Shown: positions 11,231-46,572, counted from the first letter of the stretch. The stretch is 64,000 nucleotides of DNA from Candidatus Altimarinota bacterium (GCA_046314355.1 JBKBWQ010000001.1:320001-384000), one strand, 5' to 3'. Numbers and translations: made by a program. The notes: generated by a model from the sequence alone, not told the origin.

Positions 11231-14200
11231 TTACTTATTTGGGAACTCATACATCATAAGCGCAATCTTTGAAAGCTCTGCTCGTGTTGCAAAATGCTCT
11301 CCGTGGAAAAGTCCGTCGTTCTTACCGCTGACAATTCCTCGTTTGAAAGAATATGCTACATATCGTGAGAACCAATCTGTTTCTCGTACATCCTGGAAGA
11401 ATGTATAATCATCAGAATCTGAAGACTGTATTACCTGCTCCTGATCAATCTTTGCCTGAAGTACACCGCTTGTTCCTCTAAGGATAATTTTGAGTGCTTC
11501 AGCTCTATTGACTGGCTGATTTGGTCTAAAGAATCCATCATCATAACCATTGATAATTCCAAGTGCCTTTGCCTGTGCAATGTAACCAGCATACCACTCA
11601 TTTCCACGGATATCAGGGAAAGCTTTACTTGCATCGATTCCAGCTACAGCTTTTCCATTAAGTCTCATTACAAGCTTCACAAGCTCGGCTCGAGTCATAT
11701 TCACATCTGGTCTGAATAATGATCCTGTAACTCCTGACACTACACCTCTCGATGCAAGTGTACAGATTACATCCTTTGCCCAATGGAACTGAATGTCTGT
11801 AAAGGCAGAACATGTTCCTTGAGGCTGCTGCGGAATACTTGTTCCTGGAGTATTATGTGTGTCAAAGAATCCGATTACTCCTGATTTCTTAATATAAGTA
11901 TCAAATCTCTTTCCCTTGAAATCGCTGTATCCTCCAATCTTTGTCCAAGTCTTTGTAGCAGGATCATAGAACATGATCGCAAGATTCTCTGGCTGTGAAA
12001 CATCTCTAGTAATATCTCTTGAAAGATCTCCGTATACCCGAAGCATTGGTGAGAATGTTTGAGTAAGGTCACCGTACTGGATAAAACAATCATAGAGCTG
12101 AGTATACCCGTTTGGAATACTTGTCTTTGCTGTTTCAGGAAGTCTGCTCGCTGTGTAGCAAGACGGAGTATAGATAGTTCCTGTAAATCGTGATCCGTCC
12201 GGATTCGTCACAATAGTTCCTTTATCATACTGAATGCTGATTCCATTTCCTGCATCCATATGCTTGATCGGTACAGTTGCAACACCGTTTGAAAGATCAA
12301 ATTTGAGTGGTCCGTAAACTGTAAGGAAAGATCCATTATCAGTCGCTGGGATGGTAGTCGGAGTAGTTGTATCTACCTGACTTCCTCCTCCACCACCACC
12401 TCCGCTGCTTCCACCACCGCCTCCTCCGCCACCACCTGTGGATGAGTTAGAAGTATTTATTGTAAACGCCTTAGCAGGGATAGTAATTGTAGCATTATTA
12501 GATGTTACAACTGCTTCTGCTGTATAGTTTCCAGATGGAACGAGTTGTCCATTATTATCAGTTCTGTTCCATGTAATACTTGCAAGCTGTACGCTACCAT
12601 TTCCTGGAACTACGATTGATGTCTGTCCCTGAGTAAAGTTCTGTCCTCTACTAGACTGCCATACAATCTGACCTGCACTGTTTTTGATGATCACATCAAA
12701 CATCTGGCTAGTAGGGAATGTAAGAGTCTGATTTGTACTTGTAGGGTTGAACACTACGACCTGTACATTTACATTTTCAGTTCGTGCAAAGTTTACACTA
12801 TCAGCACCTGTAACTGTACTCTTGAGAAGCAAATTACCTGTAAGTCCAAGAGTAGTCGTTGTACCTCCTGTATTTATAAAGAATGAGAAAGGTCCGTTTG
12901 CAGCAAAAGTTGGAAGTGATCCATCAGTTGCCCGTACTGTCCAATAATATCTCGTGTTATTTGTTCCAGTGAATGAATATGAATTCGTAGTAAGATTAGT
13001 AGCTACCGGAGTAGTACCAGTCAAGTTTGCAGCAGATGTTGCTACGTATACGTTGTAATTCAAAGTATTTCCATTTGGATCCTGTCCAGCCCATGTGAGG
13101 GTAGTAGTAGTTGTACTTACATTTGAGTTATCAGATGGAGATACAAGGTTTACTGTAGGAGCAAGATTTGGATTATTATTGCTAGCGACAATGCTGAATG
13201 CAGTTGTTGCAGCAGTAGGGAAGATGTTTGATCCAGTAGGATTAATATCTCCGCTGAGAATATAGTTACCAAGTGCTACCTGACTTCCATTTGTTCCAGC
13301 TTGATTCCATGTATAATTGTAAGTCTTTACTTCACCTGGATTGAAAGTCACTGACTGATTTCCAGATGTAGATGGAGAGATAAACACCTGCTGATTATTT
13401 GCATCCATTACTCTAAAGAGAGCTCGTGAAGCATCGTTGATAGTTGCTGTCTGAGTATTCTGCGTAAGATTTCGTACCTGAAGCTCAAATACCATGTTCT
13501 GTCCCTGTATAAATACAGTTCGAGGATTATTTGTAGCTCCGTCTCTTGTGATAAGAGTATATTCAAAGTTTGCATTTGCACTAGGATTCTGAGTCGCAGT
13601 CTGAGTCGTAAATGTAAATGTACCATTTAGTGACTGACCTGTAAGTCCCTGAGGATCTCTAGCTACTACTCTCCAATAGTACCGTGTACCATTTGCAAGA
13701 CCAGTTGCCTGATAGTTCGTTGCAGATGTTCCCTGAGTTACAAGAGTTGTAGGGTTTGAATTAGTATCAAAATATACATCGTATAAGAGTGCATCTCCAT
13801 TTGGATCAAATCCAAACCAAGTAAGAGTCACATTTCCACCATTTACAACAGTATTATTCGATGGAGTAAGAAGAGTAACTACAGGTGCATAATTTACCTG
13901 AGACTGAGTAGTTGATACAAGGAACTGCATCTGAGGTGCTGTAGGAAGATTGCTGTTTGTTGCGCGAATCTGTGCAGTCGCAGTATAAAGTCCGTCTACA
14001 AGTGTAGGAGTACCAGATGGTGTATCAGCTGTAAATGTTCTGACCTCTCCTGGTGCGAGTACAATACTAGTATTAGTAGTACTATCTGCATGAGCTACAA
14101 AGCTCTGCGTTCCAGTTGAAGTATTTACATTGAATCGAACCTCATCTCCATTATCCGGGAATGTTAGTGTCTGAGGCTGTGTGCTGATATTTGCTACCTG

Positions 14201-16792
14201 CATCACAAACCGTATACTTTCATTAGCTGCAAAGACTGTCTTTGCTCGTCCATTAGTAGTAGATGCTGTATAAGCTGTAAATCTGAATGTGTCATTCTGA
14301 GTAACTACTGGAGTTACAGGAGGATTTGTAGTTCCATTCGTGATATTTACACTAAATGAGTTTGGTCCGTTCGTTGCAGTTGCAGTCTGTCCGTTGGAGT
14401 TTCGTGCAATGACATTCCAGTAGTAAGTACCGTTTGTAAGTGTAGGAGAAGTAACCTGAGTACCTGTAACACCTGACATATAAAGTACAGGTGAACTAGT
14501 AGTTCCAAAGTATACATCGTAGCTTACTGCATTTGTACCATTCCAGCTAAGATTTACAGTATTTGTAGTTACTGGAGAAGTTACTGGGTTAAGAGTCACA
14601 GATGGAAGCGTAGTGCTTGTCCCTGTTACAAATGTGAAAGGTCCATTGATTGAAGATGTAAATCCATGAGATGCATCTCTTACCTGTACATTCCAGAAGT
14701 AAGGTACATTTGTACTAAGACCTGTAAGGTTGAAAGTAAGTGTTGTTGGATTTGCAGGATTTGAACTTGCTCCGTTTGGAGTAGTGTAGTTTACACAGTT
14801 CGTATTGATCGCTGCAAGTGATGTAGAATAACATACCTGGTATGTGAGCGCATCACTCTCATTGTCAGTACCTATCCATCGTACAGTTGCTGATGTTGCA
14901 GTTACATTTGTAGCATCCACAAGACGTGCGATTGGTGCCTGATTAGTTACTGTTCCTGTTGTTGTAAAGCTTGCGATCTGATCTGTAGAATACACCATGT
15001 ATGTACCGTCAGATACTCGCGCAGTCCAGTAATAAGTAGTACCAGGTGCGAGATTTGTAATTGTGTATGAACCTGTATTTGTAGTTGTGTATACACAGTT
15101 TGAAGCTGCATTATTTCGGTCTGTACTTATACAGATATCTACCGTAAGTGCATTTCCATCAGGATCAGTAGCACTGTAGTTTACAGTAGCTCCGTTCTGA
15201 GTTGGATTTGTAGCAGATCCGAGAGTGATACTTGGCATTCTATTTGTAGAATTATTTGCCATTGTAGTAAAGGAAAGAGGACCATTATCCGTGATTCCCT
15301 GTACTACCTGATCAGCAACTCGTACTGTCCAGTAATATGTCGTACCTGCAATAAGATTTGTAAGAGTTGTACTCTCATTAGATGTTGTTACAGAACAGTT
15401 ATTTGTGATATTTCCAGCAGTTGTTCCAAAACATACAGTGTATGTGAGAGGAGCATTTACATCTGCATCATATCCATTCCAGATAAGAGTAGCAGTTGTT
15501 GCCTGAATATTTCGTGACTCAAGAAGAGTTACATGTGGAGTATTGTTACCGTTGCTTGTACCAGTAGTTGTGAACGCAGCTGTATTAGAGTCTCGAGTTC
15601 CAACATTATTTGTAGCTTTTACAAACCATGTATACTGAGTATTTGCAAGAAGACCTGAAAGTGTAAAAGTTGTAGCATTTCCTGCATTTGTACAAGTGTA
15701 TGCTCCAGCAGTATTTGTTACCTTATAACATATCTGATATGAGATTGTAGTATTCTGAGTATCAGTTGCGCTGTAAGTTAATATAACACTTCCATCATTA
15801 TTTACAGAAGAGTTAAGTGCTCCAAAGTTTGGAAGAGAGTTACCTCCATTATTTGCATTATTAGTAGTGAAATACTGCACTGAGCTTGATGCGCTTCCAG
15901 TCGTATTTGTTCCACGTACCCACCACTGATATGTAGTAGCAGGAGTAAGACCGCTGATTCTATATGAAGCAGCATTTCCTACATTGATACATGTAGCAAT
16001 AGATGCATACTGTACCTGATAACATACTCTAAAGTCAGATGAGTTTGAGCTAGTCCAAGATACATCCGCAGCTGTAGAGTTTACTACAGTGGAAGAAAGA
16101 TTAGAGAAAAATGGAAGATCTCCGTTATTCACAGTACATCCATTTGAATTTCCGTTTGTTCCATAGATTGAGCAAGTACCATTCGTATTTCCGTTCGTTC
16201 CGTAGATTGATCCATTTACATTGTTGTTTGTACCATAGATGGAACCATTAGAGTTTCCATTAGTACCGTAAATAGATCCGTTTACGTTATTATTTGTACC
16301 ATATATTGATCCAGTATAGTTTTCATTTGTTCCATAGATATTTCCGGAAGTATTTGAGTTAGTCCCGTAAATAGATCCATTGCTAGAAGAAGTAGTGTTC
16401 GTTCCATAAATAGAACCATTAGAAGTACTACTTCCATTAGTACCATAAATAGAACTAGTACTAGACGTAGTATTTGTTCCATAGATTGATCCATTGCTGG
16501 AAGAACCTGTATTAGTTCCATAGATAGAACCATTAGAAGTACTACTTCCGTTGGTACCATAGATAGAGCTCGTACTTGAAGTACTATTAGTTCCGTAAAT
16601 AGAACCATTAGAAGAGCTGCCTGAGTTAGTTCCGTAAATACTAGAACTAGAGTTTGTACCATAGATAGAACTGCTGGAAGTTGAAGAACCAGAATTTGTA
16701 CCATAGATACTTTGCGCCGCAACTATTTCAACCTGAGCTACCTGCGTAAACGCAAATGCTGCAAGGATGAAAGCTGTAAAGATTTTTTTCAT
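11231..16792 (-). CDS. Large cell-surface protein: signal peptide, 16x SIYGTN repeats, multiple FN3-like and BsuPI-like Ig domains, Gly linker, three C-terminal SLH domains
   Basis: MKKIFTAFIL signal (ATG 16792); GLTPATTYQWWV-type FN3 motifs; TLTFPTSQMFDVII; FTDIQFHWA, FRPNQPVNRAE and TRAE SLH motifs. Confidence 0.88.
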   Translation of the reverse strand: MKKIFTAFILAAFAFTQVAQVEIVAAQSIYGTNSGSSTSSSSIYGTNSSSSIYGTNSGSSSNGSIYGTNSTSSTSSIYGTNGSSTSNGSIYGTNTGSSSNGSIYGTNTTSSTSSIYGTNGSSTSNGSIYGTNTTSSSNGSIYGTNSNTSGNIYGTNENYTGSIYGTNNNVNGSIYGTNGNSNGSIYGTNNNVNGSIYGTNGNTNGTCSIYGTNGNSNGCTVNNGDLPFFSNLSSTVVNSTAADVSWTSSNSSDFRVCYQVQYASIATCINVGNAASYRISGLTPATTYQWWVRGTNTTGSASSSVQYFTTNNANNGGNSLPNFGALNSSVNNDGSVILTYSATDTQNTTISYQICYKVTNTAGAYTCTNAGNATTFTLSGLLANTQYTWFVKATNNVGTRDSNTAAFTTTGTSNGNNTPHVTLLESRNIQATTATLIWNGYDADVNAPLTYTVCFGTTAGNITNNCSVTTSNESTTLTNLIAGTTYYWTVRVADQVVQGITDNGPLSFTTMANNSTNRMPSITLGSATNPTQNGATVNYSATDPDGNALTVDICISTDRNNAASNCVYTTTNTGSYTITNLAPGTTYYWTARVSDGTYMVYSTDQIASFTTTGTVTNQAPIARLVDATNVTATSATVRWIGTDNESDALTYQVCYSTSLAAINTNCVNYTTPNGASSNPANPTTLTFNLTGLSTNVPYFWNVQVRDASHGFTSSINGPFTFVTGTSTTLPSVTLNPVTSPVTTNTVNLSWNGTNAVSYDVYFGTTSSPVLYMSGVTGTQVTSPTLTNGTYYWNVIARNSNGQTATATNGPNSFSVNITNGTTNPPVTPVVTQNDTFRFTAYTASTTNGRAKTVFAANESIRFVMQVANISTQPQTLTFPDNGDEVRFNVNTSTGTQSFVAHADSTTNTSIVLAPGEVRTFTADTPSGTPTLVDGLYTATAQIRATNSNLPTAPQMQFLVSTTQSQVNYAPVVTLLTPSNNTVVNGGNVTLTWFGFDPNGDALLYDVYFDTNSNPTTLVTQGTSATNYQATGLANGTRYYWRVVARDPQGLTGQSLNGTFTFTTQTATQNPSANANFEYTLITRDGATNNPRTVFIQGQNMVFELQVRNLTQNTQTATINDASRALFRVMDANNQQVFISPSTSGNQSVTFNPGEVKTYNYTWNQAGTNGSQVALGNYILSGDINPTGSNIFPTAATTAFSIVASNNNPNLAPTVNLVSPSDNSNVSTTTTTLTWAGQDPNGNTLNYNVYVATSAANLTGTTPVATNLTTNSYSFTGTNNTRYYWTVRATDGSLPTFAANGPFSFFINTGGTTTTLGLTGNLLLKSTVTGADSVNFARTENVNVQVVVFNPTSTNQTLTFPTSQMFDVIIKNSAGQIVWQSSRGQNFTQGQTSIVVPGNGSVQLASITWNRTDNNGQLVPSGNYTAEAVVTSNNATITIPAKAFTINTSNSSTGGGGGGGGGSSGGGGGGGSQVDTTTPTTIPATDNGSFLTVYGPLKFDLSNGVATVPIKHMDAGNGISIQYDKGTIVTNPDGSRFTGTIYTPSCYTASRLPETAKTSIPNGYTQLYDCFIQYGDLTQTFSPMLRVYGDLSRDITRDVSQPENLAIMFYDPATKTWTKIGGYSDFKGKRFDTYIKKSGVIGFFDTHNTPGTSIPQQPQGTCSAFTDIQFHWAKDVICTLASRGVVSGVTGSLFRPDVNMTRAELVKLVMRLNGKAVAGIDASKAFPDIRGNEWYAGYIAQAKALGIINGYDDGFFRPNQPVNRAEALKIILRGTSGVLQAKIDQEQVIQSSDSDDYTFFQDVRETDWFSRYVAYSFKRGIVSGKNDGLFHGEHFATRAELSKIALMMYEFPNK
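16154..16711 (-). repeat. Coding tandem repeat: 16 copies of (S/N)IYGTN with Ser/Asn/Gly/Thr spacers
   Basis: Counted in the translation; synonymous codons differ between copies. Confidence 0.95.
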
Positions 16793-16946
16793 AATCATTT
16801 GATAATTTAAATGATAGTAAACTGGAAATATATGTATAAGTATCGAAACAGAAAGGGAATACAACAAAAAGAAAATACCGTTTCGTATTCTCTTTTGTTT
16901 TTGTTTGATATTTTGCTCAGTCCCTTTTGAAAGGTTCTGATACACT

Positions 16947-16974
16947 ATCATATGTAAACTTTACTAAATGTCAA
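16947..16974 (-). promoter_or_regulatory. Putative sigma70 promoter of the large SLH protein gene
   Basis: TTGACA-16 bp-TATGAT. Confidence 0.65.
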
Positions 16975-17105
16975 GTTATTTTATATATACTATTTATTCT
17001 AACTCACAATTTAGTAACTAAGTATGTATCTCTATAATAGAAGACGACTCAACTAAGGAAAAAGTTACATAAAATTTATTCCCAGAAAAGAGAAACTTTT
17101 TTAAC

Positions 17106-17141
17106 AATAGAAGAAGCGCTGATAAGGGTGCTTCTTCTATT
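17106..17141 (-). terminator. Intrinsic terminator
   Basis: AATAGAAGAAGC...GCTTCTTCTATT inverted repeat downstream of 17175-17828. Confidence 0.7.
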
Positions 17142-17174
17142 TAAATAGATCTAATATTTTACTGTATTTTGAAA

Positions 17175-17828
17175 TTACTCTCTTCCTACAAAGAGTTTTG
17201 CAATCACATTACCGTCAATACTAGCTTCAAATGTATCTCTATTACCCGTAGACACAAATGTAGCAATTTGCGGAACTCTTATTTTCCCAGAACCGTTATT
17301 TATTACTCCTGAAAAAAACGGACGAGCAGCATTAGAAGTCATGATGAGATTTACAGTTTTGCCATTAAACTCACTGAGATCACTAAATGTCAGATCCACA
17401 TTCTCACCAATGTTTATTCCATTTCCTGAGAGAAAGAGTCGAGCATCCTTTCGAGAATTATTCCCTGATTCTTGTTTCACTACAAAATTTGATCCATTGC
17501 TTTGAGCGATCACTAATCTTGGCTGATCCTTATTTAAAGAAATAGGAGCGAGCTGATTTTTATCTACACTACTTGTAGAAGCTTGCGCACTTGGAATAGG
17601 AGTCTCTTCCACTTCTACCAGTTTGTACTTTTTTACTTCCTTTACTTCTGCACACGCTGTATTTACTCCGCAAGGATATAATTGCCCATTCGTAGAACAT
17701 CCTGCAGTCATAGTCAAGATAGCAGAAGCTGTCATACGTACTAGCTTGTTTGCCATAGACGAAGGCAACATTGATACTTGATTTACTTTGTCTTCTTTGT
17801 TTGTAGTTCCTTCATTGATGAAATTCAT
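17175..17828 (-). CDS. Putative lipoprotein, paralog of 18104-19186 (shared C-terminal beta-rich domain)
   Basis: AILTMTAGC lipobox-like; NGSNFVVKQESGNNSRKD...IDGNV...VGRE shared with its neighbour. Confidence 0.7.
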   Translation of the reverse strand: MNFINEGTTNKEDKVNQVSMLPSSMANKLVRMTASAILTMTAGCSTNGQLYPCGVNTACAEVKEVKKYKLVEVEETPIPSAQASTSSVDKNQLAPISLNKDQPRLVIAQSNGSNFVVKQESGNNSRKDARLFLSGNGINIGENVDLTFSDLSEFNGKTVNLIMTSNAARPFFSGVINNGSGKIRVPQIATFVSTGNRDTFEASIDGNVIAKLFVGRE

Positions 17829-18020
17829 AATAGCAAAATATAATATATAAAAATTTCATCAAGTTATTACTCCTCTCTTCACTTCAAAACAAGACATATA
17901 TATTTTACTTATCCACAAGAATTGTTGGCACCCCACATCAAATAACATTAAAAACAGATCTTGATATTCTGTATGCTCAAAATACTGAGAGCTCTTATAT
18001 TAAGCGAAAAAATTTTACAC

Positions 18021-18052
18021 AAAAAAAAGAAGCACTTTTTAAAGTGCTTCTT
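18021..18052 (-). terminator. Intrinsic terminator
   Basis: AAGAAGCACTT...AAGTGCTTCTT followed by a U tract on the minus strand. Confidence 0.75.
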
Positions 18053-18103
18053 ATAGGTAACTAGATTCCCTCCTTTCTTTTTATTTATAATAATTTTTTG
18101 TTT

Positions 18104-19186
18104 TTATTCGCGACCAACGTAAAGGCGCACACCAACGTTGCCGTCAATATTTCCTTCATAAGTATCACGCACACTAGTACTTACAGATCCAGGGATCTGT
18201 GGTACTGAAATTGTGACACTTCCTCCACTCACTGTGCCGGTGAACGTAGGTCTTGACGAATTTGAAGTCATGATCAAGGTAAAAGTCTTACCATTGAAAT
18301 CATTCAGACCGCCAAATACTAAGTTAACATTATCTCCACTACGGCTGGCATCTAGACCAATTCTAGAATCCTTTCTAGAATTATTCCCAGATTCCTGCTT
18401 TACAACAAAATTAGAGCCGTTTGTTTGGCTTACAACCAATCTGGATTGATCAGCGTTAAGTTGTAGAGAAGTAACGTTATTGCTTGTTGCTGTACGCACT
18501 GTATAGGTAAATGTGAAAGTTGAACCGTTTGAATTAAATCCTTTTAACTCAACACTGTAGTTAGTATCAGCAGATAAACCGCTGTAAGTAACACTTCTTT
18601 CATTATAGAGAGTTTTTACGTCTCCATTATTTAGCCTAGACTCGATTCTTTGGAGGTTTTCACCTCCGAAATTTACAGTGAATCCACTACTGGTGATACC
18701 AGTGGCAGAAACATTGTTGATTACCGGAGAACCTACATTGGCAGATGATGATGGGCTTGGTGTTGGTGTTGAGATAAGTGTAAAAATCACATTACCATTT
18801 TCGATGGTAACTTTGTCAATTTTACGAACTCCTCCTTCTTCAAATGTTACTTCGTAATATGTTGAAGAAATCCTGGTTGCCTTGATCACTGGATAATTAA
18901 GAGCAGAATAATGAGTTAACATTACTCCTTTCTCTTCATTATTATCTAATGAAGTATATTTACCAGGGGCAGTTGATGCAGATGCGCTTGGAGTAGGTGT
19001 CGCATTACCACTAAGGCGGTACTGTTTGCCAGCTCTAATCTCAAATAATCCTTCGCTATCACGGTAAATCCCATCGGGCATTGCTGCCACATTGATAGAA
19101 CTTACTGGAGCACAACCAGTTACGATTGAACCAAAACCACCGAAAGTTAAAATTCCAACTAATATTAAAGTCTTTACGTTTTTCAT
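18104..19186 (-). CDS. Putative lipoprotein with FN3-like domain and shared C-terminal domain
   Basis: IVTGC lipobox; TPTPSAS linkers; YSGLSADTNYSVEL FN3 motif; AAGGAGA SD. Confidence 0.75.
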   Translation of the reverse strand: MKNVKTLILVGILTFGGFGSIVTGCAPVSSINVAAMPDGIYRDSEGLFEIRAGKQYRLSGNATPTPSASASTAPGKYTSLDNNEEKGVMLTHYSALNYPVIKATRISSTYYEVTFEEGGVRKIDKVTIENGNVIFTLISTPTPSPSSSANVGSPVINNVSATGITSSGFTVNFGGENLQRIESRLNNGDVKTLYNERSVTYSGLSADTNYSVELKGFNSNGSTFTFTYTVRTATSNNVTSLQLNADQSRLVVSQTNGSNFVVKQESGNNSRKDSRIGLDASRSGDNVNLVFGGLNDFNGKTFTLIMTSNSSRPTFTGTVSGGSVTISVPQIPGSVSTSVRDTYEGNIDGNVGVRLYVGRE

Positions 19187-19431
19187 AATAAATCTCCTTG
19201 CCTCTCGGCATTCTCTATATCATTTTAATATATTTGGCTTTTGAGATGACTACATCCCTTCAAGGTCAAGTGAGAGATATCCTCTCATAAATCCTCTATT
19301 ACTAATGTAATCACCCTCGCATTTTTATGTATATGCTTTCTTGGGGGAACCTAGTTGTTAAAGAACTTATGACAGGATAAGATATCCTGGTCACTTGACT
19401 TCAAGAAGAAATGTTTGTTTCTCTTAAGTCG
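19187..19431 (-). promoter_or_regulatory. Long structured 5' leader with boxA-like element
   Basis: Long-range pairs 19265-19273/19391-19399 and 19278-19290/19367-19379; GTTCTTTAACAA at 19355-19366. Confidence 0.55.
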
Positions 19432-19436
19432 AGGGT

Positions 19437-19464
19437 ATTATACATAAACTACTTATCTTGTCAA
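19437..19464 (-). promoter_or_regulatory. Consensus sigma70 promoter
   Basis: TTGACA-16 bp-TATAAT. Confidence 0.8.
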
Positions 19465-19609
19465 CATATTTCACAACAATTATTACATTTTGTATATGAT
19501 GCTATATTTTAGCTTCTACCAACGCATTTTATACTTACATTTTTAAAATATTTATAACCTAGATCGAATATTTTAAACTTTTTATATCTTATAGTACAAA
19601 TTTTATTAT

Positions 19610-19638
19610 AAAAAAGCTGCCATAGTATGGCAGCTTTT
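19610..19638 (-). terminator. Intrinsic terminator
   Basis: AAAAGCTGCCAT-loop-ATGGCAGCTTTT. Confidence 0.8.
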
Positions 19639-19663
19639 ATTTTACTCAACAGAAAAAGATTAA

Positions 19664-21016
19664 TTAATACTTAATTTCTCCCCATATGATTCCGGAGAAC
19701 TGTCCAAAACTTGTAAGACCCGAAGGCACTAATACAGCTTTTAGATTGAAATTCAGTAATCCAACCTTGTAATCAAACTCAGGTCCAACACCTACCATCC
19801 AAGATTCTGGGTTTTTCAGTCCATACACACCTATTCTTAATGGAACAGGCGCATAAGGTCTTATGCTCGCACCAGCAAATCCTTCACTGCTCCATCCTAG
19901 AAAGGCAGGGTAGAATTCACCACGACCGGTAAACTTCAGCATTCCTTCAAGAGGTGTGACCTCTATCTCAGCAATACCCGCCGGCACAAGACCATAACTT
20001 CCATAATTATACCGTCCTCCGCCCAATAGACGAAGCGTCACAATATCTGAAAACATTGCCTTGCCGCCGATACCAAAGAATGTGGAGGAAAAGTTAGATC
20101 CAAACGCATTTGGAATCTGCGCTGTTCCTCTTATGTCCGCAGCAGGTGCCACAGAAAAATCTTTAGCAACTTCTACTCCTTCCCACCAAGGTAGTGTCAC
20201 CACAGGCGTTTGAGATGGAATAGGTATTGCAGTTGGTGATGCAGAAGGAACAGGGGATTGGGATTTTTGTCTCTCCAATTCTTTTACCTTCTCTTCAAGA
20301 GCTTTTTGTTCCTGCTGCTGCTGTTTCAACTTCCTTTTTATGTCTTCTAACTCCGGATCTTTTGTAGGTACCGGAGTGGGGGTAGCGAGAACTGTAGGTG
20401 TAGGTGTCGCGACAGGTTTAATACAGTTTCTTCCAAGTTCCTTTAGAGCATCATCTTGTAGCCCTTGGATATATTTATGCCCATCAGTTTTATCCACTAA
20501 CTGGGCAGCAAATATTTCCAGAGTACCAGGAGTAAAAAAATAGGTTTTAGCACTTAAACGTGCCTGACCTAAGTCATCGACTACTTGTTGTGTTTCTCCA
20601 AGTAGTTTATAAGTAACGATTAGTTCATATGGTCTTCCCCGATTCTGGGTTCTTACACCTAATACTAATTTTCCATTTACACAGGAAGAAGTAATAGGGT
20701 TTAATTCCATAGGAGTAACCGCAACTTTTTTGATCGGAACCACCGGTGTCTTTTTTACCGCCGGTTTCACAGGAACTTGTTTTTTTACAACAGGTACCTG
20801 CTTGATCACTTTTTTAGGCTGAATCTTTTTGACTCCTGTATTCTTTTTTGAAGAAGCAGGAGCAATTTTTTTAAGAGTATTCTGCTTCGGTTTCACACTA
20901 GGTGTCACCTTTTTCTTAATTACTTCAGCTTTTTTAGCATATGAGATACTAGCAAAAGTAGGAGTAATAAATCCTGCAGCAATCATACATGCCACAACTG
21001 CGTTTCTAAAAGCCAT
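19664..21016 (-). CDS. Secreted protein: Lys/Pro-rich N-terminus, small Cys-pair domain, coiled coil, C-terminal beta-barrel-like region
   Basis: Signal peptide; LEDIKRKLKQQQQEQKALEEKVKELE; amphipathic Gly/aromatic strands ending WGEIKY; AAGGAGG SD. Confidence 0.6.
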   Translation of the reverse strand: MAFRNAVVACMIAAGFITPTFASISYAKKAEVIKKKVTPSVKPKQNTLKKIAPASSKKNTGVKKIQPKKVIKQVPVVKKQVPVKPAVKKTPVVPIKKVAVTPMELNPITSSCVNGKLVLGVRTQNRGRPYELIVTYKLLGETQQVVDDLGQARLSAKTYFFTPGTLEIFAAQLVDKTDGHKYIQGLQDDALKELGRNCIKPVATPTPTVLATPTPVPTKDPELEDIKRKLKQQQQEQKALEEKVKELERQKSQSPVPSASPTAIPIPSQTPVVTLPWWEGVEVAKDFSVAPAADIRGTAQIPNAFGSNFSSTFFGIGGKAMFSDIVTLRLLGGGRYNYGSYGLVPAGIAEIEVTPLEGMLKFTGRGEFYPAFLGWSSEGFAGASIRPYAPVPLRIGVYGLKNPESWMVGVGPEFDYKVGLLNFNLKAVLVPSGLTSFGQFSGIIWGEIKY

Positions 21017-21312
21017 ATACGGCCTCCTTTTTATCTATAATACTTTATTAACGTTTTTATATTCATGTACTTTCAAAAAAATTAATCTTTCCTGTTTGTA
21101 AATGAACATTTGCAATCTGCACGACTTTTAATATCGCCAACTTGCGATATATGTATAATGTACCCTTATATATAAGTCAATAAAAGCAGAGCTATTAGAA
21201 TGTTTTATTGAAACTAAAATACTCTATATGTATAGTTTAACAAAGTTCTGTCGTTCAGCATAGCAGAGAATGACTACTCGAATAGGGAATATAAACCATA
21301 TATCTAATTATC

Positions 21313-21355
21313 TTTATAGTTTATAGTTGACTATAAACTATAAACTATATACAAT
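21313..21355 (+). promoter_or_regulatory. Promoter overlapped by an operator-like inverted repeat; leaderless geometry
   Basis: TTTATAGTTTATAGT-TG-ACTATAAACTATAAA; TTGACT-17 bp-TACAAT with ATG starting 7 nt after the -10. Confidence 0.7.
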
Positions 21356-21361
21356 AAGATC

Positions 21362-22345
21362 ATGAAAACACTTACAGGACAAAAAATAGTAGAATATATA
21401 GAAGAGCATTCTCAAGCAACAGCAAAAGAGTTGTCAGAGTTTTTGAATATAAGTCCACAGGCGCTTTTTCGACAGCTTGCAAAGCTGCAGGAACGCGGGC
21501 AGATTACAAAGATAGGAACACCGCCTAAGGTGTTTTATCTACCTGTAACAAAAGGGAAGGAGGCTATCCTGGAAAGCACAGATCTCACCGCTGAAGAAAG
21601 ACAAGTTATTGATACTCAATATATCCACATCACTCCGCTTGGGGAGAAAAAAGAAGGAATAGAAGGCTTTATATACTGGACTGAAAAAACACATCAGCCT
21701 TTTCATAAGACTGCTCATGAATACATTCAGGCTATAAAGAAGTATGACAAATTTAAAGATCATGGACTTATTGATGCGACTTCAAAGCTGCAGAATACTT
21801 TTGAGGAATTTTTTCTAGATAAGCTCTATTATCTAGACTTCTATAGCATTGAACGCTTCGGAAAGACGAAGCTTGGCCAGCTTCTCCTCTACGCAAAACA
21901 AAGTCAGAATATGAGACTAATGAAAGAGCTCATTGCAGTTATTGAACCAAATCTAAAGGAACTTATAGTGAGATGTAATATTGACGCAATAGGGTTTATC
22001 CCTCCGACAGTAAAGCGTGAAACGCAATTTATGAAGGTACTCGAGAGCGCACTCCAGCTCAATATTCACAAGCTGCCTATCATAAAAATAAAATCAGAGA
22101 TTATGGTTCCTCAGAAGACTTTAACAAAACTTGCCGATAGAATAGAGAATGCTCAAAAAACCATGTTCGTTGATACGAAAACAGTATACAATAATGTTCT
22201 CCTTATCGATGATGCGGTAGGGTCGGGAGCAACTCTCAATGAAACAGCTGGTCAGATCCGGAGAAGAGGTCTCTGTACCGGAAAGATTATCGGAGTGGCA
22301 ATCACAGGAAGCCTCAATGGATTTGATGTTATAAGCGAAGTATAA
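21362..22345 (+). CDS. Winged-HTH + phosphoribosyltransferase-domain protein
   Basis: ATAKELSEFLNISPQALFRQLAKL; VLLIDDAVGSGATL PRPP-binding loop. Confidence 0.85.
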   Translation: MKTLTGQKIVEYIEEHSQATAKELSEFLNISPQALFRQLAKLQERGQITKIGTPPKVFYLPVTKGKEAILESTDLTAEERQVIDTQYIHITPLGEKKEGIEGFIYWTEKTHQPFHKTAHEYIQAIKKYDKFKDHGLIDATSKLQNTFEEFFLDKLYYLDFYSIERFGKTKLGQLLLYAKQSQNMRLMKELIAVIEPNLKELIVRCNIDAIGFIPPTVKRETQFMKVLESALQLNIHKLPIIKIKSEIMVPQKTLTKLADRIENAQKTMFVDTKTVYNNVLLIDDAVGSGATLNETAGQIRRRGLCTGKIIGVAITGSLNGFDVISEV

Positions 22346-22368
22346 ATTTTCTTTTTTCTTTTTTTATC

Positions 22369-22677
22369 ATGCAGAAATTACTCCTCATTACCGTTACTGG
22401 TGAGATGAATCCCATAGAGTTTAAAAATCATATCGTCTATAAGGTACAACATTATAATACTCACCTGCTATCTCCCAAACATCCTGAGATCACTGGAAAC
22501 GTAGAGTCGCTCAGCGATGATACTATCCGCATCCGTGCAGAGGGAGAAGAGTCAGACTTGCAGTTTGTGCTTGAACAAGCAAAGATAGGTCCCATCCTCT
22601 CCCATATTCAGAACGTTCATTATGAATGGAAGCCTGCGGGGAACAAGTACAAGCTATTTGGTATTAAAAGAGCTTAA
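22369..22677 (+). CDS. Acylphosphatase-like protein (divergent)
   Basis: ITGNVESLSDDTIRIRAEGEE, GPILSHIQNV; the catalytic GxVQGVxFR loop is not conserved. Confidence 0.6.
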   Translation: MQKLLLITVTGEMNPIEFKNHIVYKVQHYNTHLLSPKHPEITGNVESLSDDTIRIRAEGEESDLQFVLEQAKIGPILSHIQNVHYEWKPAGNKYKLFGIKRA

Positions 22678-22678
22678 T

Positions 22679-23410
22679 ATGACACTGCATTCTTTTTTTC
22701 TTCCGGGATTTCAAACTAATACTGATGAGACTTCGGTCCTTTCTGAAAAGGCGTATCCTGAATGTTTCCATCAAATCTCTACCGTACTTCGCGCAAAGAA
22801 GGGAACAGAGTTTTACCTGCTGAACAATCTTGGTCAGCGCTATCTTATGCGTATTACGCAGATAGAAAAAAAATCTATGACTGTTCTCTGTATAAAAATA
22901 GAATCAAAGGAAGCTGAGAATACTTTAAGCCTATGGATACCACTCATAAAACTACCAAAACTTGAAGCTGCACTTCAAATGTATACACAATTAGGAGTAA
23001 CTCATTTCAAAATTTTCAGGAGTGATTTTACTGACGAGAAAATAGAAATCCTGTCAGAAGCCAAAAAAGAGAGACTGCTTCGTATAATTACAGAGGCAAG
23101 TGAACAGTCAGAGCGTTTTTTCATTCCTACAATAGAATATCTTCTGACGGATTTTAAAAATGCTGAATACACTGAGAATATCTATGTGGCAGTTGAAAGA
23201 AATCAGCTTCAAAAGCAAGATCACTCAAAGGAATCAATCCGAAGTGTCATGATTGGTCCAGAAGGAGGATGGAGCAGCACGGAAATTACATTTTTCAAAA
23301 AAGACCCAAGGTTTTATCCATTGGATCTTCATTGTACAAATATACTGAGAGCAGAGACTGCTGCGGTGGTGGCAGTAGCATTGAGTCATTCTGAGCGAAA
23401 CGTAGTGTAG
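22679..23410 (+). CDS. rsmE: 16S rRNA m3U1498 methyltransferase
   Basis: HQISTVLR, EASEQSER, IGPEGGWS, ILRAETA. Confidence 0.93.
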   Translation: MTLHSFFLPGFQTNTDETSVLSEKAYPECFHQISTVLRAKKGTEFYLLNNLGQRYLMRITQIEKKSMTVLCIKIESKEAENTLSLWIPLIKLPKLEAALQMYTQLGVTHFKIFRSDFTDEKIEILSEAKKERLLRIITEASEQSERFFIPTIEYLLTDFKNAEYTENIYVAVERNQLQKQDHSKESIRSVMIGPEGGWSSTEITFFKKDPRFYPLDLHCTNILRAETAAVVAVALSHSERNVV

Positions 23411-23475
23411 TCGAAGGATCTGTATTTGGTAATTACTTAGAGTAATCCCGAAGGCAAATGACCGTGCTGGATGAC
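23385..23475. repeat. Degenerate REP-like palindromic element (GTCATTCTGAGCG...GGATGAC type)
   Basis: Left end GTCATTCTGAGCGAAACGTAGTGTAGTCGAAGGATCT, right end GGATGAC; lies between convergent genes. Confidence 0.55.
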
Positions 23476-23477
23476 GA

Positions 23478-24599
23478 TTAAAAGCTCTGCTTCTTGTACC
23501 AGTCCCAATCATAGGAAAGTACAGTAGTATCCCATGGGCGGTAAGATGAGTATACCTTTTTTGCCGTCTGATGAGTAAACTCCTTTCCATCAAATACCTT
23601 ATTTTTCATAAACTCATATTTCTTGGCAAGTTGAACGTTTCCTTTTGCAAGTACTTTAAACTCGTCTGCGTGAAGAGTATAGTAGTTGAAGGTCTCTGCG
23701 AAATCCTCAAAAGGATCAGAGCTTGCATATCCGCTTACAAAACCTTCATTATTTGTAGAAATTTTCTCATTTGAATTCTTCCAAGAGATTGCGTAGAACT
23801 CACTGCTCACATCATCTGTAGCGATAGAAGTATCTCCATCCATAAATCCTGAAGCATTCCCTCGTCCGCTGCCAGTAAAATGTCCAAGATCCACCACATG
23901 TCCAAGCTCATGTATTGCCACTCCTACCAATTCACTATCTTTCATATCGCTTACTCGTAAGATCATTGTATTAGATCCAGCAAGTCCTCTAGGTCCTTCT
24001 GAAGATGTCTTGAGTGTTAGATTTACAAGAGGATTTGTAAACTTTGCAGGAAATTTCTGAAACATTGCAGCAAGAGTCTGTTCTATATGTGCCGTCTCTG
24101 CAGAAGAAAGCTCGTTAGTAGCATCCTGGATAGTAAAATTACGTATCAACTCAGAAAGAGACTTCTGCTTAGTATTATTTACTGTTGCTACCGTTTCCTT
24201 TACTGGTGCTGGAGCATCGACTACTACAGGTGAAGAAGAAAGAATAGTGTTAACAACAGAGACACTTTCTTCCTCTACTATTTCAATTTCATTTTTAGGA
24301 CTCCACTGCGTATCTGGGATTATCTCAATAGGCTGAGGATTGAAACTTATCACTGAAGTATTCTTCTCATCAACTCTCGGCATATTATCAAATATACCTT
24401 CTAGGAGCATATGCACATCAAAGGATGCAATACGCTCACCAAATGTAGGAGCCATACCAAACACACCTCCTAAAGAAGAGCTGTCTGCAACTATCACATT
24501 CTCATTTGCCACTGTATGGAAAGCAACCGGTTCAGTTACACTTGCAATAAGCGTAAAAGAAACTACTGCCGTAAAAATGGTTGTAAGTGTTTTTTTCAC
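23478..24599 (-). CDS. Secreted zinc metallopeptidase (gluzincin-type)
   Basis: Signal-like start VKKTLTTIF (GTG 24599); HELGH; YASSDPFEDFAETF. Confidence 0.8.
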   Translation of the reverse strand: MKKTLTTIFTAVVSFTLIASVTEPVAFHTVANENVIVADSSSLGGVFGMAPTFGERIASFDVHMLLEGIFDNMPRVDEKNTSVISFNPQPIEIIPDTQWSPKNEIEIVEEESVSVVNTILSSSPVVVDAPAPVKETVATVNNTKQKSLSELIRNFTIQDATNELSSAETAHIEQTLAAMFQKFPAKFTNPLVNLTLKTSSEGPRGLAGSNTMILRVSDMKDSELVGVAIHELGHVVDLGHFTGSGRGNASGFMDGDTSIATDDVSSEFYAISWKNSNEKISTNNEGFVSGYASSDPFEDFAETFNYYTLHADEFKVLAKGNVQLAKKYEFMKNKVFDGKEFTHQTAKKVYSSYRPWDTTVLSYDWDWYKKQSF

Positions 24600-24799
24600 A
24601 AAATAAAGGAGAAACAAAATAAAATTCTCTCTCTTTATATGTTTATGTGTGATAGTAAAAGGGAAGCATTGACGAATAGCTTTGACCCCCTGAACGTGAA
24701 AGCAATATATACTTGTTTTACAAAATGTCAATATATTATAGAAAGATATTTATATTATCTTTGAGACAAATATCTCTACACATTTTATATGCTAATTTT

Positions 24800-41475: not shown

Positions 41476-43494
41476 ATGAAAAATCTCCATTTGCAGTATC
41501 ATGCAATTAACATAAATCACCACAGTGCTGAGGAACTTCATGAAAGCTTCCATATTAATGTGGGCGAAGAAGGAGAACTATTTATTGCTGTTGGATTCAC
41601 AAATATTGTAAATGAAGTGGGATGTAAAAATACTCTCTACACCATAGTACAGACTATTCAGAATACACTTTTTTCTGATACATCTAAGGATCTCTATGAG
41701 AGATTTGAAGAGGGAATAAAGGAGCTGAACATCTATCTTCAAGATAAGGATTTCACTGAAATTGGAAGAACACATATTGCTATTGGTCTGTTGGAGAATG
41801 ACTCCATGTATATCACGAAGACTGGTGGGGCAGAGATCTATCTTCTCCGAAGTGGTATCTGTACTAATGTTACGGCAAACTTTGATAATGTTATGTATAG
41901 CGAAGATGAAGATAACCAGCTCTCTAGCATTGCCAGCGGAGAAGAAGGGTTACCTGAGTATTTCACAAATATTGCCACAGGAGCACTTGAAGAAAAGGAT
42001 ATCATACTTATTTCTTCCACAAGATTTACAAAATTCATAGGTGAGCAAGAGGTACTCGCCTTATTTGGAAAAAATAATATCGAGATCGGATTCATAAATA
42101 TGGAGCATAAGCTCAAGGAAAATCCTTCTGCTGACATTGCAGTACTCGGGTTTATATACACAGGCGGTGATGCAAAAACAATGCATGAGAGCTCTACATC
42201 TACGACATATGCAGAGGATGGAAGTATGTATGTACCGAGCAGGGAAGCTAATAAAATAGATATTAAGAAGATATTTACTTCCATAGCTCAGGGCAAAGTA
42301 AACTGGGATAGTATTAAAACTCGTGCGAAGGATTTCTACGAACAGCAGAAACTCTATGTCATGAATCCAAAGTACAGAGTGAAGCTCATTATATTAGGAA
42401 TAGTACTTCTGCTTATATTATTGGTAGTCAATATCAGTACTGCCATTGGAGGAAAGCAGAATGCAGAACAGACAGCAGCACTCCAGCAGAAATTTGCAGA
42501 AGCTCAGAAGGAGTATCAGCTCGGAGCAACAAGTAATATTAAAGGAGACAGAGAAGCTGCCCGTACTCATTTAGACACTGCAAAGAAGCTCACTCTTGAA
42601 CTCAAAGAAGGAAAAAAATCCACAGCAGATATGAATGCACTTCTTGATAAAATAGAAAAAGAAGAGGACGAAGCAAACAAGCTTACACGAATTGGTGAAG
42701 CAAACAGCTTTATAGATCTGAATGGAAAAGTAGAGAACGATGACCCTAAGGGGCTCGCATACTTTGACGAAAAGGTTTATGCATATTCTTCCACTAGTCT
42801 CTATGGTCCATTTGTAAATAATACTACAAACGCAAACAGCAAATATGCAGTAGAAGATAATAATCTTATCAAAGACGTAGCCTACTTCGGTGACATTCGA
42901 GGACTACTCATTAAGCTTACGCCAGATAAGGTAGCAGAATTTGTAAATAATGATTTCAAATATTCTGATACTACGTCTACAACATGGAAGTCTGGAGATA
43001 CGATAGCTACATTTGGAAATAATCTGTATCTGCTCTCTGAGAATCAAGTCTGGAGATATACAAGAAATAAGAATACTTATCGTGGTCCCTCTCCATGGCT
43101 TCAGAAAACAGACCCAATCTTAAAGGATGCAGTTTCTTTCTCTATTGATGGAAGCATCTACGTGCTACTCAAGACTGGGGAAATCAAAAAATATTTCCAG
43201 GGTAAGCCTGTAACTGATTTTGTTATCCAAGATATGCCAAAAGATCTACTGCAGGGTGTAGATGACAGATCTCAGATCCTCACTACAGCTGATGCAACAC
43301 ATGTGTATGTGCTCAATCATGGTACTGGAAAGATCATCGTACTGACAAAGGTAAAGGGTAATGTATCTCAAGTAGCGTTCGACAAACAATTTGGGTTTGA
43401 TCAAGTTGAAATCATCCACATAGTATTGTCTGCAGACGAAAAAACCCTACTTGCTCTTGGCAATAACAAAAAAATCTATAAGATAGATTTGTAG
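41476..43494 (+). CDS. CPR-type membrane protein: degenerate PP2C-like N-domain, TM, coiled coil, extracellular beta-propeller-like region
   Basis: GGAEIYLLRSG, GALEEKDIILISS; TM LIILGIVLLLILLV; NLYLL and SIDGSIYVL blade-like motifs. Confidence 0.6.
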   Translation: MKNLHLQYHAININHHSAEELHESFHINVGEEGELFIAVGFTNIVNEVGCKNTLYTIVQTIQNTLFSDTSKDLYERFEEGIKELNIYLQDKDFTEIGRTHIAIGLLENDSMYITKTGGAEIYLLRSGICTNVTANFDNVMYSEDEDNQLSSIASGEEGLPEYFTNIATGALEEKDIILISSTRFTKFIGEQEVLALFGKNNIEIGFINMEHKLKENPSADIAVLGFIYTGGDAKTMHESSTSTTYAEDGSMYVPSREANKIDIKKIFTSIAQGKVNWDSIKTRAKDFYEQQKLYVMNPKYRVKLIILGIVLLLILLVVNISTAIGGKQNAEQTAALQQKFAEAQKEYQLGATSNIKGDREAARTHLDTAKKLTLELKEGKKSTADMNALLDKIEKEEDEANKLTRIGEANSFIDLNGKVENDDPKGLAYFDEKVYAYSSTSLYGPFVNNTTNANSKYAVEDNNLIKDVAYFGDIRGLLIKLTPDKVAEFVNNDFKYSDTTSTTWKSGDTIATFGNNLYLLSENQVWRYTRNKNTYRGPSPWLQKTDPILKDAVSFSIDGSIYVLLKTGEIKKYFQGKPVTDFVIQDMPKDLLQGVDDRSQILTTADATHVYVLNHGTGKIIVLTKVKGNVSQVAFDKQFGFDQVEIIHIVLSADEKTLLALGNNKKIYKIDL

Positions 43495-46495: not shown

Positions 46496-46572
46496 TGGTG
46501 GCTGAATGGAGAGTTGAACTCCAGACCTCGGGGTTATGAATCCCGCGCTCTAACCAACTGAGCTACCCAGCC
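46496..46572 (-). tRNA. tRNA-Met (CAT), elongator type
   Basis: GGCTGGGTAGCTCAGTTGGTTAGAGCGCGGGATTCATAACCCCGAGGTCTGGAGTTCAACTCTCCATTCAGCCACCA; paired G1-C72; encoded CCA. Confidence 0.95.

Follow-up and report, generated by a model that had tools for sequence, protein, structure and literature searches.

A putative lineage-restricted surface-protein locus beside an S-layer-type gene in an apparently monoderm CPR bacterium

Three adjacent genes for exported proteins, one of them ending in a domain that resembles an outer-membrane beta-barrel, raise the question of whether they were imported into a bacterium that appears to have a single membrane, or whether they evolved there. The window analysed here is a stretch of 64,000 nt that starts 320 kb into the 1.62-Mb contig of a Candidatus Altimarinota genome (1.69 Mb, rated 98.3% complete), and the three genes, designated A, B and C, are co-oriented open reading frames (ORFs) of its minus strand, spanning positions 17175-21016. 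The original prediction saw in them a foreign envelope cassette, captured from a diderm donor. We consider it probable, with moderate confidence, that A, B and C instead constitute a lineage-restricted surface-protein locus of a one-membrane bacterium belonging to the Candidate Phyla Radiation (CPR), which evolved in place beside an S-layer gene and was not imported.

Gene A (17175-17828, minus strand) encodes 217 residues when read from the first ATG of the longest ORF, although its true start is likely Met20 (17771) or Met25 (17756), with the Cys of its lipobox at residue 44; a short Cys-containing stretch is followed by a P/S/T linker and by a C-terminal domain shared with B (residues 91-217, 17178-17558). 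Gene B (18104-19186, minus strand; 360 residues, lipobox IVTG immediately before Cys25) specifies an N-terminal domain of ~110 residues, a PT linker, an fn3-like domain (residues 158-223, 18518-18715) recognized by a sub-cut-off match to PF00041, and the shared C-terminal domain (residues ~234-360, 18107-18487). The product of gene C (19664-21016, minus strand; 450 residues) is predicted to be secreted, with a type-I signal peptide (1 to ~26), a very basic stretch rich in Lys, Pro and Val (~28-100), a globular part with two Cys (~101-200), a PT linker, a helix (221-251, 20264-20356), a PS linker and a Gly/aromatic-rich, all-beta C-terminal domain (~276-450, 19667-20191) that ends in GEIKY. All three proteins thus contain P/T/S linkers.

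A tblastn comparison against the genome's own 1.69-Mb assembly aligned residues 91-217 of A with residues 236-360 of B at 58.3% identity over 127 aa (E 1.7e-41), with no further genomic copies of either gene, and retrieved only the self-match for C. Synonymous sites in the shared domain are saturated (proportion of synonymous differences, pS, 0.81) while the corresponding nonsynonymous value, pN, is 0.29, which indicates that the duplication is old and that both copies are under purifying selection. This contrast, together with the Shine-Dalgarno (SD) sites, promoter and terminators described below, shows that A, B and C are real genes. The original prediction is therefore borne out as to the three co-oriented genes, the two paralogous lipoproteins, which both carry a lipobox, and the P/T/S linkers in each protein.

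Outside this genome, the three proteins are orphans. No Pfam or NCBIfam family was found for A; for B, the fn3 profile (PF00041) reached E 0.0048 and 17.5 bits, under the 25-bit Pfam gathering cut-off, the best match to its ESM Atlas features was an fn3 cluster at 0.89, under the tool's own bar of 0.9, and its Atlas model showed a weak likeness (template modelling score, TM, <0.5) to architectures that combine fn3 with carbohydrate-binding modules. Sequence searches of the PDB with C and B yielded nothing below E 0.17. We found no homolog of C in any of the 40 relatives searched (3 from the same family and 37 from the same class), and the sole match to B among them, in G034 (E 7.2e-4, 23% identity, in the fn3 region and with an in-frame TAG), was dismissed as an ortholog. 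A word-indexed search of 5.77 billion clustered proteins retrieved only C itself when queried with C (7999 candidates scored, lengths 247-788) and only B and A when queried with B (5396 candidates, lengths 198-630); a profile of A and B run against longer proteins of the same set retrieved only B (4641 candidates). An exhaustive phmmer search with the last 181 aa of C against 1.84 billion representatives returned C and one spurious repeat protein (P0004, 1033 aa, E 5.7e-5), rejected as a homolog because a 32-residue match was copied over seven near-identical repeats; residues ~100-200 of C were covered by the word index and the contig patterns only. There was no tblastn match in 50,697 phage records and no match in PHROGs, and none of the 113 and 391 pattern matches in metagenome contigs was confirmed, with viral contigs also yielding nothing.

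The composition of the locus is that of its genome. In codon-usage distance from the genome mean, A, B and C lie at the 46th, 67th and 74th percentiles of genes of similar length; the GC content of the stretch is 0.370, vs. 0.382 for the genome, and its tetranucleotide distance, taken over 4 kb, ranks at the 87.5th percentile when compared with all 4-kb windows, exceeding the mean by less than one standard deviation. No integrase was found near the three genes, as had been claimed, the nearest candidate being a XerC/D-like gene at 1713-2708; there is likewise no tRNA gene near them, and the only one in the window is at 46496. The sole flanking repeat, a 20-nt AT-rich direct pair with 85% identity (16820-16839 and 21139-21158), was taken as due to chance. 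A 36,439 nt Logan contig, from an independent assembly of a hot-spring metagenome run, covers positions 14500-23500 with zero differences. That run, which may be the source of the genome, is the one public DNA run that contains the stretch; no RNA run was among those listed, and a second run of the same study (X3) does not cover it.

Several features of the genome point to a CPR (Patescibacteria) lineage of a Gracilibacteria-type class that uses the standard code: the genome has no gene for ribosomal protein L30, the genomes of relatives from the same class measure 0.7-2.0 Mb, and conserved genes of five of them (G013, G024, G030, G031, and G036) contain 2-9 in-frame TGA codons. These codons are consistent with the use of an alternative genetic code by some members of the class; the genome examined here reads TGA as stop. 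Passages of one published account (PMC6744442) count L30 among the families that CPR lack, and report that these organisms are believed to have no outer membrane. A search with RecA did not decide the matter, as numerous other phyla were interspersed among the top matches, which came from Saccharibacteria and Patescibacteria (64-70%). Profiles for outer-membrane markers, whose positive controls matched in named diderm genomes, gave 0 matches in this 98.3% complete genome for Omp85 (PF01103), LpxC (PF03331), LolA (PF03548), OMP_b-brl (PF13505) and Secretin (PF00263). The sole OEP (TolC) match is the coiled coil of a membrane-fusion protein of the HlyD/MacA type. This 744-aa protein (G000:C1:133202-135436; locus L008, 364-2598) has a very long coiled coil that scores 27.2 bits with OEP, above the Pfam cut-off, and is followed by a MacB-like ATP-binding cassette ATPase, in a genome without TolC or an outer membrane. 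These sequence comparisons support an apparently monoderm CPR organism, in agreement with the earlier claim of a CPR genome lacking an outer membrane and the barrel-assembly machinery (BAM), for which bamA and lolA had been named as the genes to look for.

A and B also match what would be expected in such a cell. Their lipoboxes (MANKLVRMTASAILTMTAG-C in A, counted from the internal Met, and MKNVKTLILVGILTFGGFGSIVTG-C in B) both satisfy the lipobox rule of an invariant Cys that follows a basic n-region and a hydrophobic h-region, ~15-35 residues from the start, applied here as a regular expression of a PROSITE-style pattern. Two matches to Lgt (PF01790; 1.2e-65 and 9e-27, G000:C1:1123180-1123929 and 154742-155512) and one to LspA (PF01252; 3.5e-33) were found in the genome, and 42 of 1338 crude ORFs contain a lipobox-like signal, indicating that lipoproteins are an ordinary class in this cell and no diderm trait. 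A and B are predicted from these motifs to be monoderm-type lipoproteins with new domains.

Each gene has its own transcription signals, and two of them also have unusual translation signals. Strong SD sites precede B (GGCAAGGAGATTTATT-ATG, with an AAGGAG core) and C (AAAAGGAGGCCGTAT-ATG, with AAGGAGG), and none precedes A; as had been noticed for nth, recA and the galU-like gene, we found no SD site upstream of these, nor upstream of mutS, pyrG, the genes for L9 and the sortase, or the HTH-PRTase gene described below. Over the whole genome, a strong 6-mer SD site precedes 43 of 1263 crude first starts (3.4%), vs. 0.9% at random positions. A signal-peptide heuristic applied to 95 genes with strong SD sites was too permissive (477/1263 ORFs positive) and was not used. 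At A, an upstream ORF of 15 codons (~17787-17834, minus strand), preceded by a GGAG motif at a distance of 10 nt, overlaps in a different frame the ATG with which the longest ORF of A opens; it was found by eye and may be due to chance.

A scan located a hairpin followed by a T-run after C (19612-19638, minus strand; palindromic, with T-runs on both strands) and an intrinsic terminator of the same make after B (18027-18052, minus strand). The 9-bp hairpin after A (17109-17138, minus strand) lacks a good T-run and was found by eye, not called by the scan, so that the earlier claim of one terminator per gene stands for C and B and falters at A. A promoter that matches the sigma-70 consensus perfectly (TTGACA-16-TATAAT, 19464 to 19437, minus strand; 12/12 positions) lies ~245 nt upstream of B. 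The contig contains four such sites on both strands, and their number alone proves nothing because some three are expected by chance from base-composition arithmetic. The promoter and the untranslated leader of B together take up 19187-19464 (minus strand; leader of ~245 nt), and the leader folds into a long stable helix (minimum free energy -69.6 kcal/mol, z -4.58, with 0/200 shuffles as stable). It has no match in Rfam, is single-copy in the genome, was found in none of the 40 relatives and has no ORF of note inside; we consider that it may be an undescribed cis-regulatory RNA. A search of positions 16500-21800 with Rfam gave only sub-threshold small RNA matches, on terminators.

Residues 268-450 of C, at its C-terminus, are 14.8% Gly and 14.8% Phe, Tyr and Trp, without Cys, and the end of the protein (FSGIIWGEIKY), with a terminal Tyr and alternating hydrophobic residues, fits an outer-membrane beta-signal by eye; 7.7% of ORFs end in Phe, Tyr or Trp. 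The ESM Atlas model of the whole protein is of low confidence (predicted TM, pTM, 0.37; mean predicted local distance difference test, pLDDT, 0.53), and in all 10 matches listed its region ~268-450 superposed on models from clusters of outer-membrane barrels, with TM by query of 0.51-0.62; these were, among others, Phage_OMP, the autotransporter beta-domain, CopB, PorV/PorQ, TraF_2 and MetA-pathway clusters. By language-model features, the nearest clusters (0.90-0.92) comprise one of the OMP_b-brl family and otherwise proteins without a name, 176-232 aa long. C ranks first of 1221 ORFs by a crude score of Gly, aromatic content and beta-amphipathicity in the last 180 residues, which does not amount to an independent test of likeness to outer-membrane proteins (OMPs) because it was designed after C had been seen. 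AlphaFold2 (AF2), run without an alignment, gave a pLDDT of 40.4 for the whole of C, with the helix 221-251 as its sole confident element (block pLDDT 78-89), and of 32.5 for the C-terminal 181 aa, drawn with low confidence as all-beta with long hairpins and ~10 strands. The latter model found nothing in the PDB with Foldseek (best E 0.41, TM ≤0.28), and an oligomer run with three copies of residues 215-450 scored 0.01, giving no verdict either way. With residues 270-450, Pfam gave no family match even when E values up to 10 were allowed, and no OMP barrel family came up in the scans of the whole protein with Pfam and NCBIfam; the genome-wide search with PF13505 did not pick up C, and a literature search, judged by titles and abstracts, found no paper on an OMP-type barrel in CPR. 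The beta-barrel-like protein that had been claimed is thus a lead, which draws on composition and one low-confidence Atlas model, and not on any family profile or confident model. We rate the chances that the domain has a closed barrel fold as about even, and consider it unlikely to serve as a membrane barrel directed at a host.

The surroundings of A, B and C are those of a surface-protein neighborhood, as indicated by the giant gene that adjoins A. This SLH-anchored, S-layer-type protein (11231-16951, minus strand; 1906 aa) matches SLH at 4.2e-35 in three stretches and fn3 at 6.8e-31; it has at its N-terminus a run of short S/T/N/G-rich repeats in which the motif IYGTN occurs, along with numerous modules of the fn3 and BsuPI-like kinds and a poly-Gly tract; its stretch is the strongest tetranucleotide outlier of the entire contig, and its SLH-containing C-terminal part has 22, 46 and 31 matches in the three genomes of the same family. 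On the other side, divergent from C, a gene (21362-22345, plus strand) encodes a winged helix-turn-helix (HTH) domain fused to a C-terminal ComF/phosphoribosyltransferase (PRTase)-like domain; when 12 relatives were searched for this HTH-PRTase gene, only G003 yielded it (41% identity), and there its contig, of 3.4 kb, has no neighbors in common with the window. Further away are a gene for a secreted Zn-metallopeptidase (23478-24731, minus strand; Peptidase_Mx, 7.2e-9), present in 30 of the 40 relatives and with a second copy in the genome, and a gene for a 672-aa protein (41476-43494), present in 36 of the 40. The metallopeptidase also has a match just below threshold (27.0 vs. 27.4 bits) to the family of the anthrax lethal factor N/C-domain.

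One relative of the same family, G002 (97% complete), retains the gene order of the window through L9, RuvX, Bax1-I, YceD, metallopeptidase, RsmE and acylphosphatase, plus an extra Pth. Beyond acylphosphatase, the window continues with the HTH-PRTase gene, which is absent from the syntenic place in G002, and then with C, B and A, whereas in G002 five minus-strand ORFs follow, up to the end of the contig. Three of these specify membrane-anchored proteins (285, 165 and 303 aa), one a small membrane protein of 107 aa, and one a lipoprotein of 207 aa with the lipobox LSA-C, a PT linker of some length and ~95 aa of C-terminal domain; none showed similarity to A, B or C beyond low-complexity linkers. 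The G002 ortholog of the SLH protein is located at the edge of another contig, followed by AhpC, which is also near in the window, and we infer that the two contig ends abut and that the S-layer gene is adjacent there too. If they do, the slot bounded by the S-layer gene and acylphosphatase-rsmE would be filled by different exported orphans in the two genomes, as one expects of a surface-protein locus with fast turnover.

How these observations bear on the origin of A, B and C depends on what each explanation would lead one to expect. Horizontal capture from a diderm host or phage, with the genes kept for host interaction, would account for the strong SD sites of B and C, which so few first starts share, for the resemblance of the C-terminus of C to an outer-membrane barrel in the Atlas model, and for the lack of the genes in all 40 relatives, where two neighboring genes are present in 36 and 30; indeed, the vertical inheritance across the lineage that the original prediction had named as speaking against capture is not what we see. 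However, it is difficult to reconcile with the failure to find a homolog on any donor side, be it among the 5.77 billion clustered proteins, the 1.84 billion representatives, phages, PHROGs, or metagenome and viral contigs, with a composition that turned out host-like, with an old A/B duplication, and with the absence of marks of mobility (integrase, tRNA, bounding repeat); we thus regard capture as unlikely. Far less probable still is that the ORFs are non-functional, whether arisen by chance or decaying remnants: such an origin would suit orphans without a family match, but not a domain that keeps 58% amino acid identity in spite of saturated synonymous sites, nor long open frames with signal peptides, SD sites, promoter and terminators, and a codon usage typical of the genome. 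Several points nevertheless weigh against evolution in place. Orphan status fits both divergence in situ and acquisition from an unsampled donor and cannot separate them; the rarity of strong SD sites could also be read as a foreign mark, and the genome-wide statistics derive from crude longest-ORF gene calls; synteny comes from one usable relative, with the locus split over two contigs; the domains of A, B and C have no family match, and their functional roles are only predicted; and both AF2 models of C are unusable for its fold.

The nature of the C-terminal domain of C brings in two other explanations, both of which take the barrel at face value. It might be a true, BAM-independent membrane beta-barrel on a coiled-coil stalk, which would serve as an anchor or pore by inserting itself into a diderm host's outer membrane, with A and B as accessory binders. 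The fit of the Atlas model to outer-membrane barrels in the 10 matches listed, the Gly and aromatic content with a terminal Tyr and no Cys, the first rank by OMP-likeness, the all-beta AF2 secondary structure with its long hairpins, and a genome without barrel-assembly machinery of its own would all agree with it, as would the enrichment in CPR of families for pili and cell-cell interaction reported in the available part of one source (PMC6744442). Against it, the Atlas model is itself of low confidence, the AF2 model of the domain is poorer yet and left Foldseek empty, no OMP family profile matched even at E up to 10, and the score was built post hoc; moreover, alternating hydrophobic residues are common to soluble beta-sandwiches and barrels. 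To our knowledge, no monomeric OMP-type barrel is known to insert from the outside of a cell without the help of BAM. This explanation has, in our judgment, a small chance of being right, and the same small chance attaches to its corollary, that C would be a new weapon or anchor of a one-membrane CPR epibiont, in the form of an outer-membrane-type barrel without detectable relatives and with A and B as cell-side partners. Alternatively, the organism itself could be enclosed by a cryptic outer membrane or outer layer of lipid, in which C would reside as a barrel and be tethered to the wall in the manner of OmpM or SlpA; the order of modules in C (basic wall-facing part, coiled coil, barrel-like domain) resembles that of these proteins, and the lineage has many SLH proteins. 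Yet the genome lacks Omp85, LpxC, LolA, OMP_b-brl and secretin, its single OEP match is an adaptor coiled coil beside a MacB-like ATPase, C has no SLH domain and is the only OMP-like ORF of the genome by the crude score, and the part of the literature cited above considers the outer membrane absent from CPR, all of which makes this alternative highly improbable.

Under the explanation that we favor, a home-grown surface-protein locus in a cell with one membrane, A and B would be exported by Sec, lipidated by Lgt and LspA, and thereby anchored on the external side of the cytoplasmic membrane. The P/T/S linkers of both, and in B also the fn3-like spacer, would hold the shared 127-residue domain out in or beyond the wall, where it may bind a ligand. 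C would be exported by means of its cleavable signal peptide; its basic, Lys/Pro-rich stretch would most likely run along, or be bound to, the anionic wall, with the coiled coil as a stalk. The Gly/aromatic-rich all-beta domain would do the work at the far end; it is most likely a module for binding, exposed at the surface and barrel-like in its fold. Judging from their unusually strong translation signals, B and C are probably abundant. All three proteins would be part of a variable surface coat beside the S-layer gene.

Little is understood of how CPR bacteria fasten themselves to their hosts and exploit them, and their surface proteins are mostly orphans, like A, B and C. Were the domain of C a true membrane barrel, it would rank as the first barrel of the outer-membrane type to come from a cell that lacks both BAM and an outer membrane, and would make host contact open to direct testing. 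Should the domain prove to be a beta-rich module for binding, of an ordinary kind, the locus would be a typical slot for fast-evolving surface proteins beside the S-layer gene, and would serve mainly to show that CPR envelope genes of foreign appearance can be home-grown.

Among known systems, C is similar in layout to the OmpM/SlpA tethers, in which SLH, coiled coil and barrel follow one another, according to the available parts of two accounts (PMC10628300, PMC9388160). C has the same order, with an extended N-terminal part, the coiled-coil helix 221-251 and the barrel-like C-terminal domain; it differs in that it has no SLH match, although the profile library used does detect SLH in the neighboring protein, at 4.2e-35, in that the putative barrel is small (~175 residues and roughly 10 strands in the AF2 model), and in that the genome has no BamA or outer-membrane markers. 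FapF likewise has a coiled coil before a C-terminal barrel-like part, although its NCBIfam profile (NF058560) matched C at E 0.044 with 12.6 bits, vs. a cut-off of 700, and only through the coiled coil (profile positions 12-68). The lack of SLH, the 12.6 vs. 700 bits, and the absence of BamA and an outer membrane indicate that C is a member of neither the OmpM/SlpA nor the FapF group. With the small outer-membrane barrel families (Phage_OMP, PF24653; OMP_b-brl, PF13505; PorV/PorQ; and the autotransporter beta-domain), C shares the Atlas fit at TM 0.51-0.62, the composition and the terminal Tyr, but not a sequence-profile match or a confident model, and it comes from a genome without an outer membrane. 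A and B, in turn, are like monoderm surface lipoproteins, the substrates of Lgt and LspA, in their positive N-terminus, hydrophobic core, lipobox Cys, and P/T/S linkers that precede globular domains, and differ from them in that these domains belong to no known family, the 127-residue domain being confined to A and B in every collection searched. A, B and C are thus orphan surface proteins of a known general kind, one of which has an unusual and unproven barrel-like domain.

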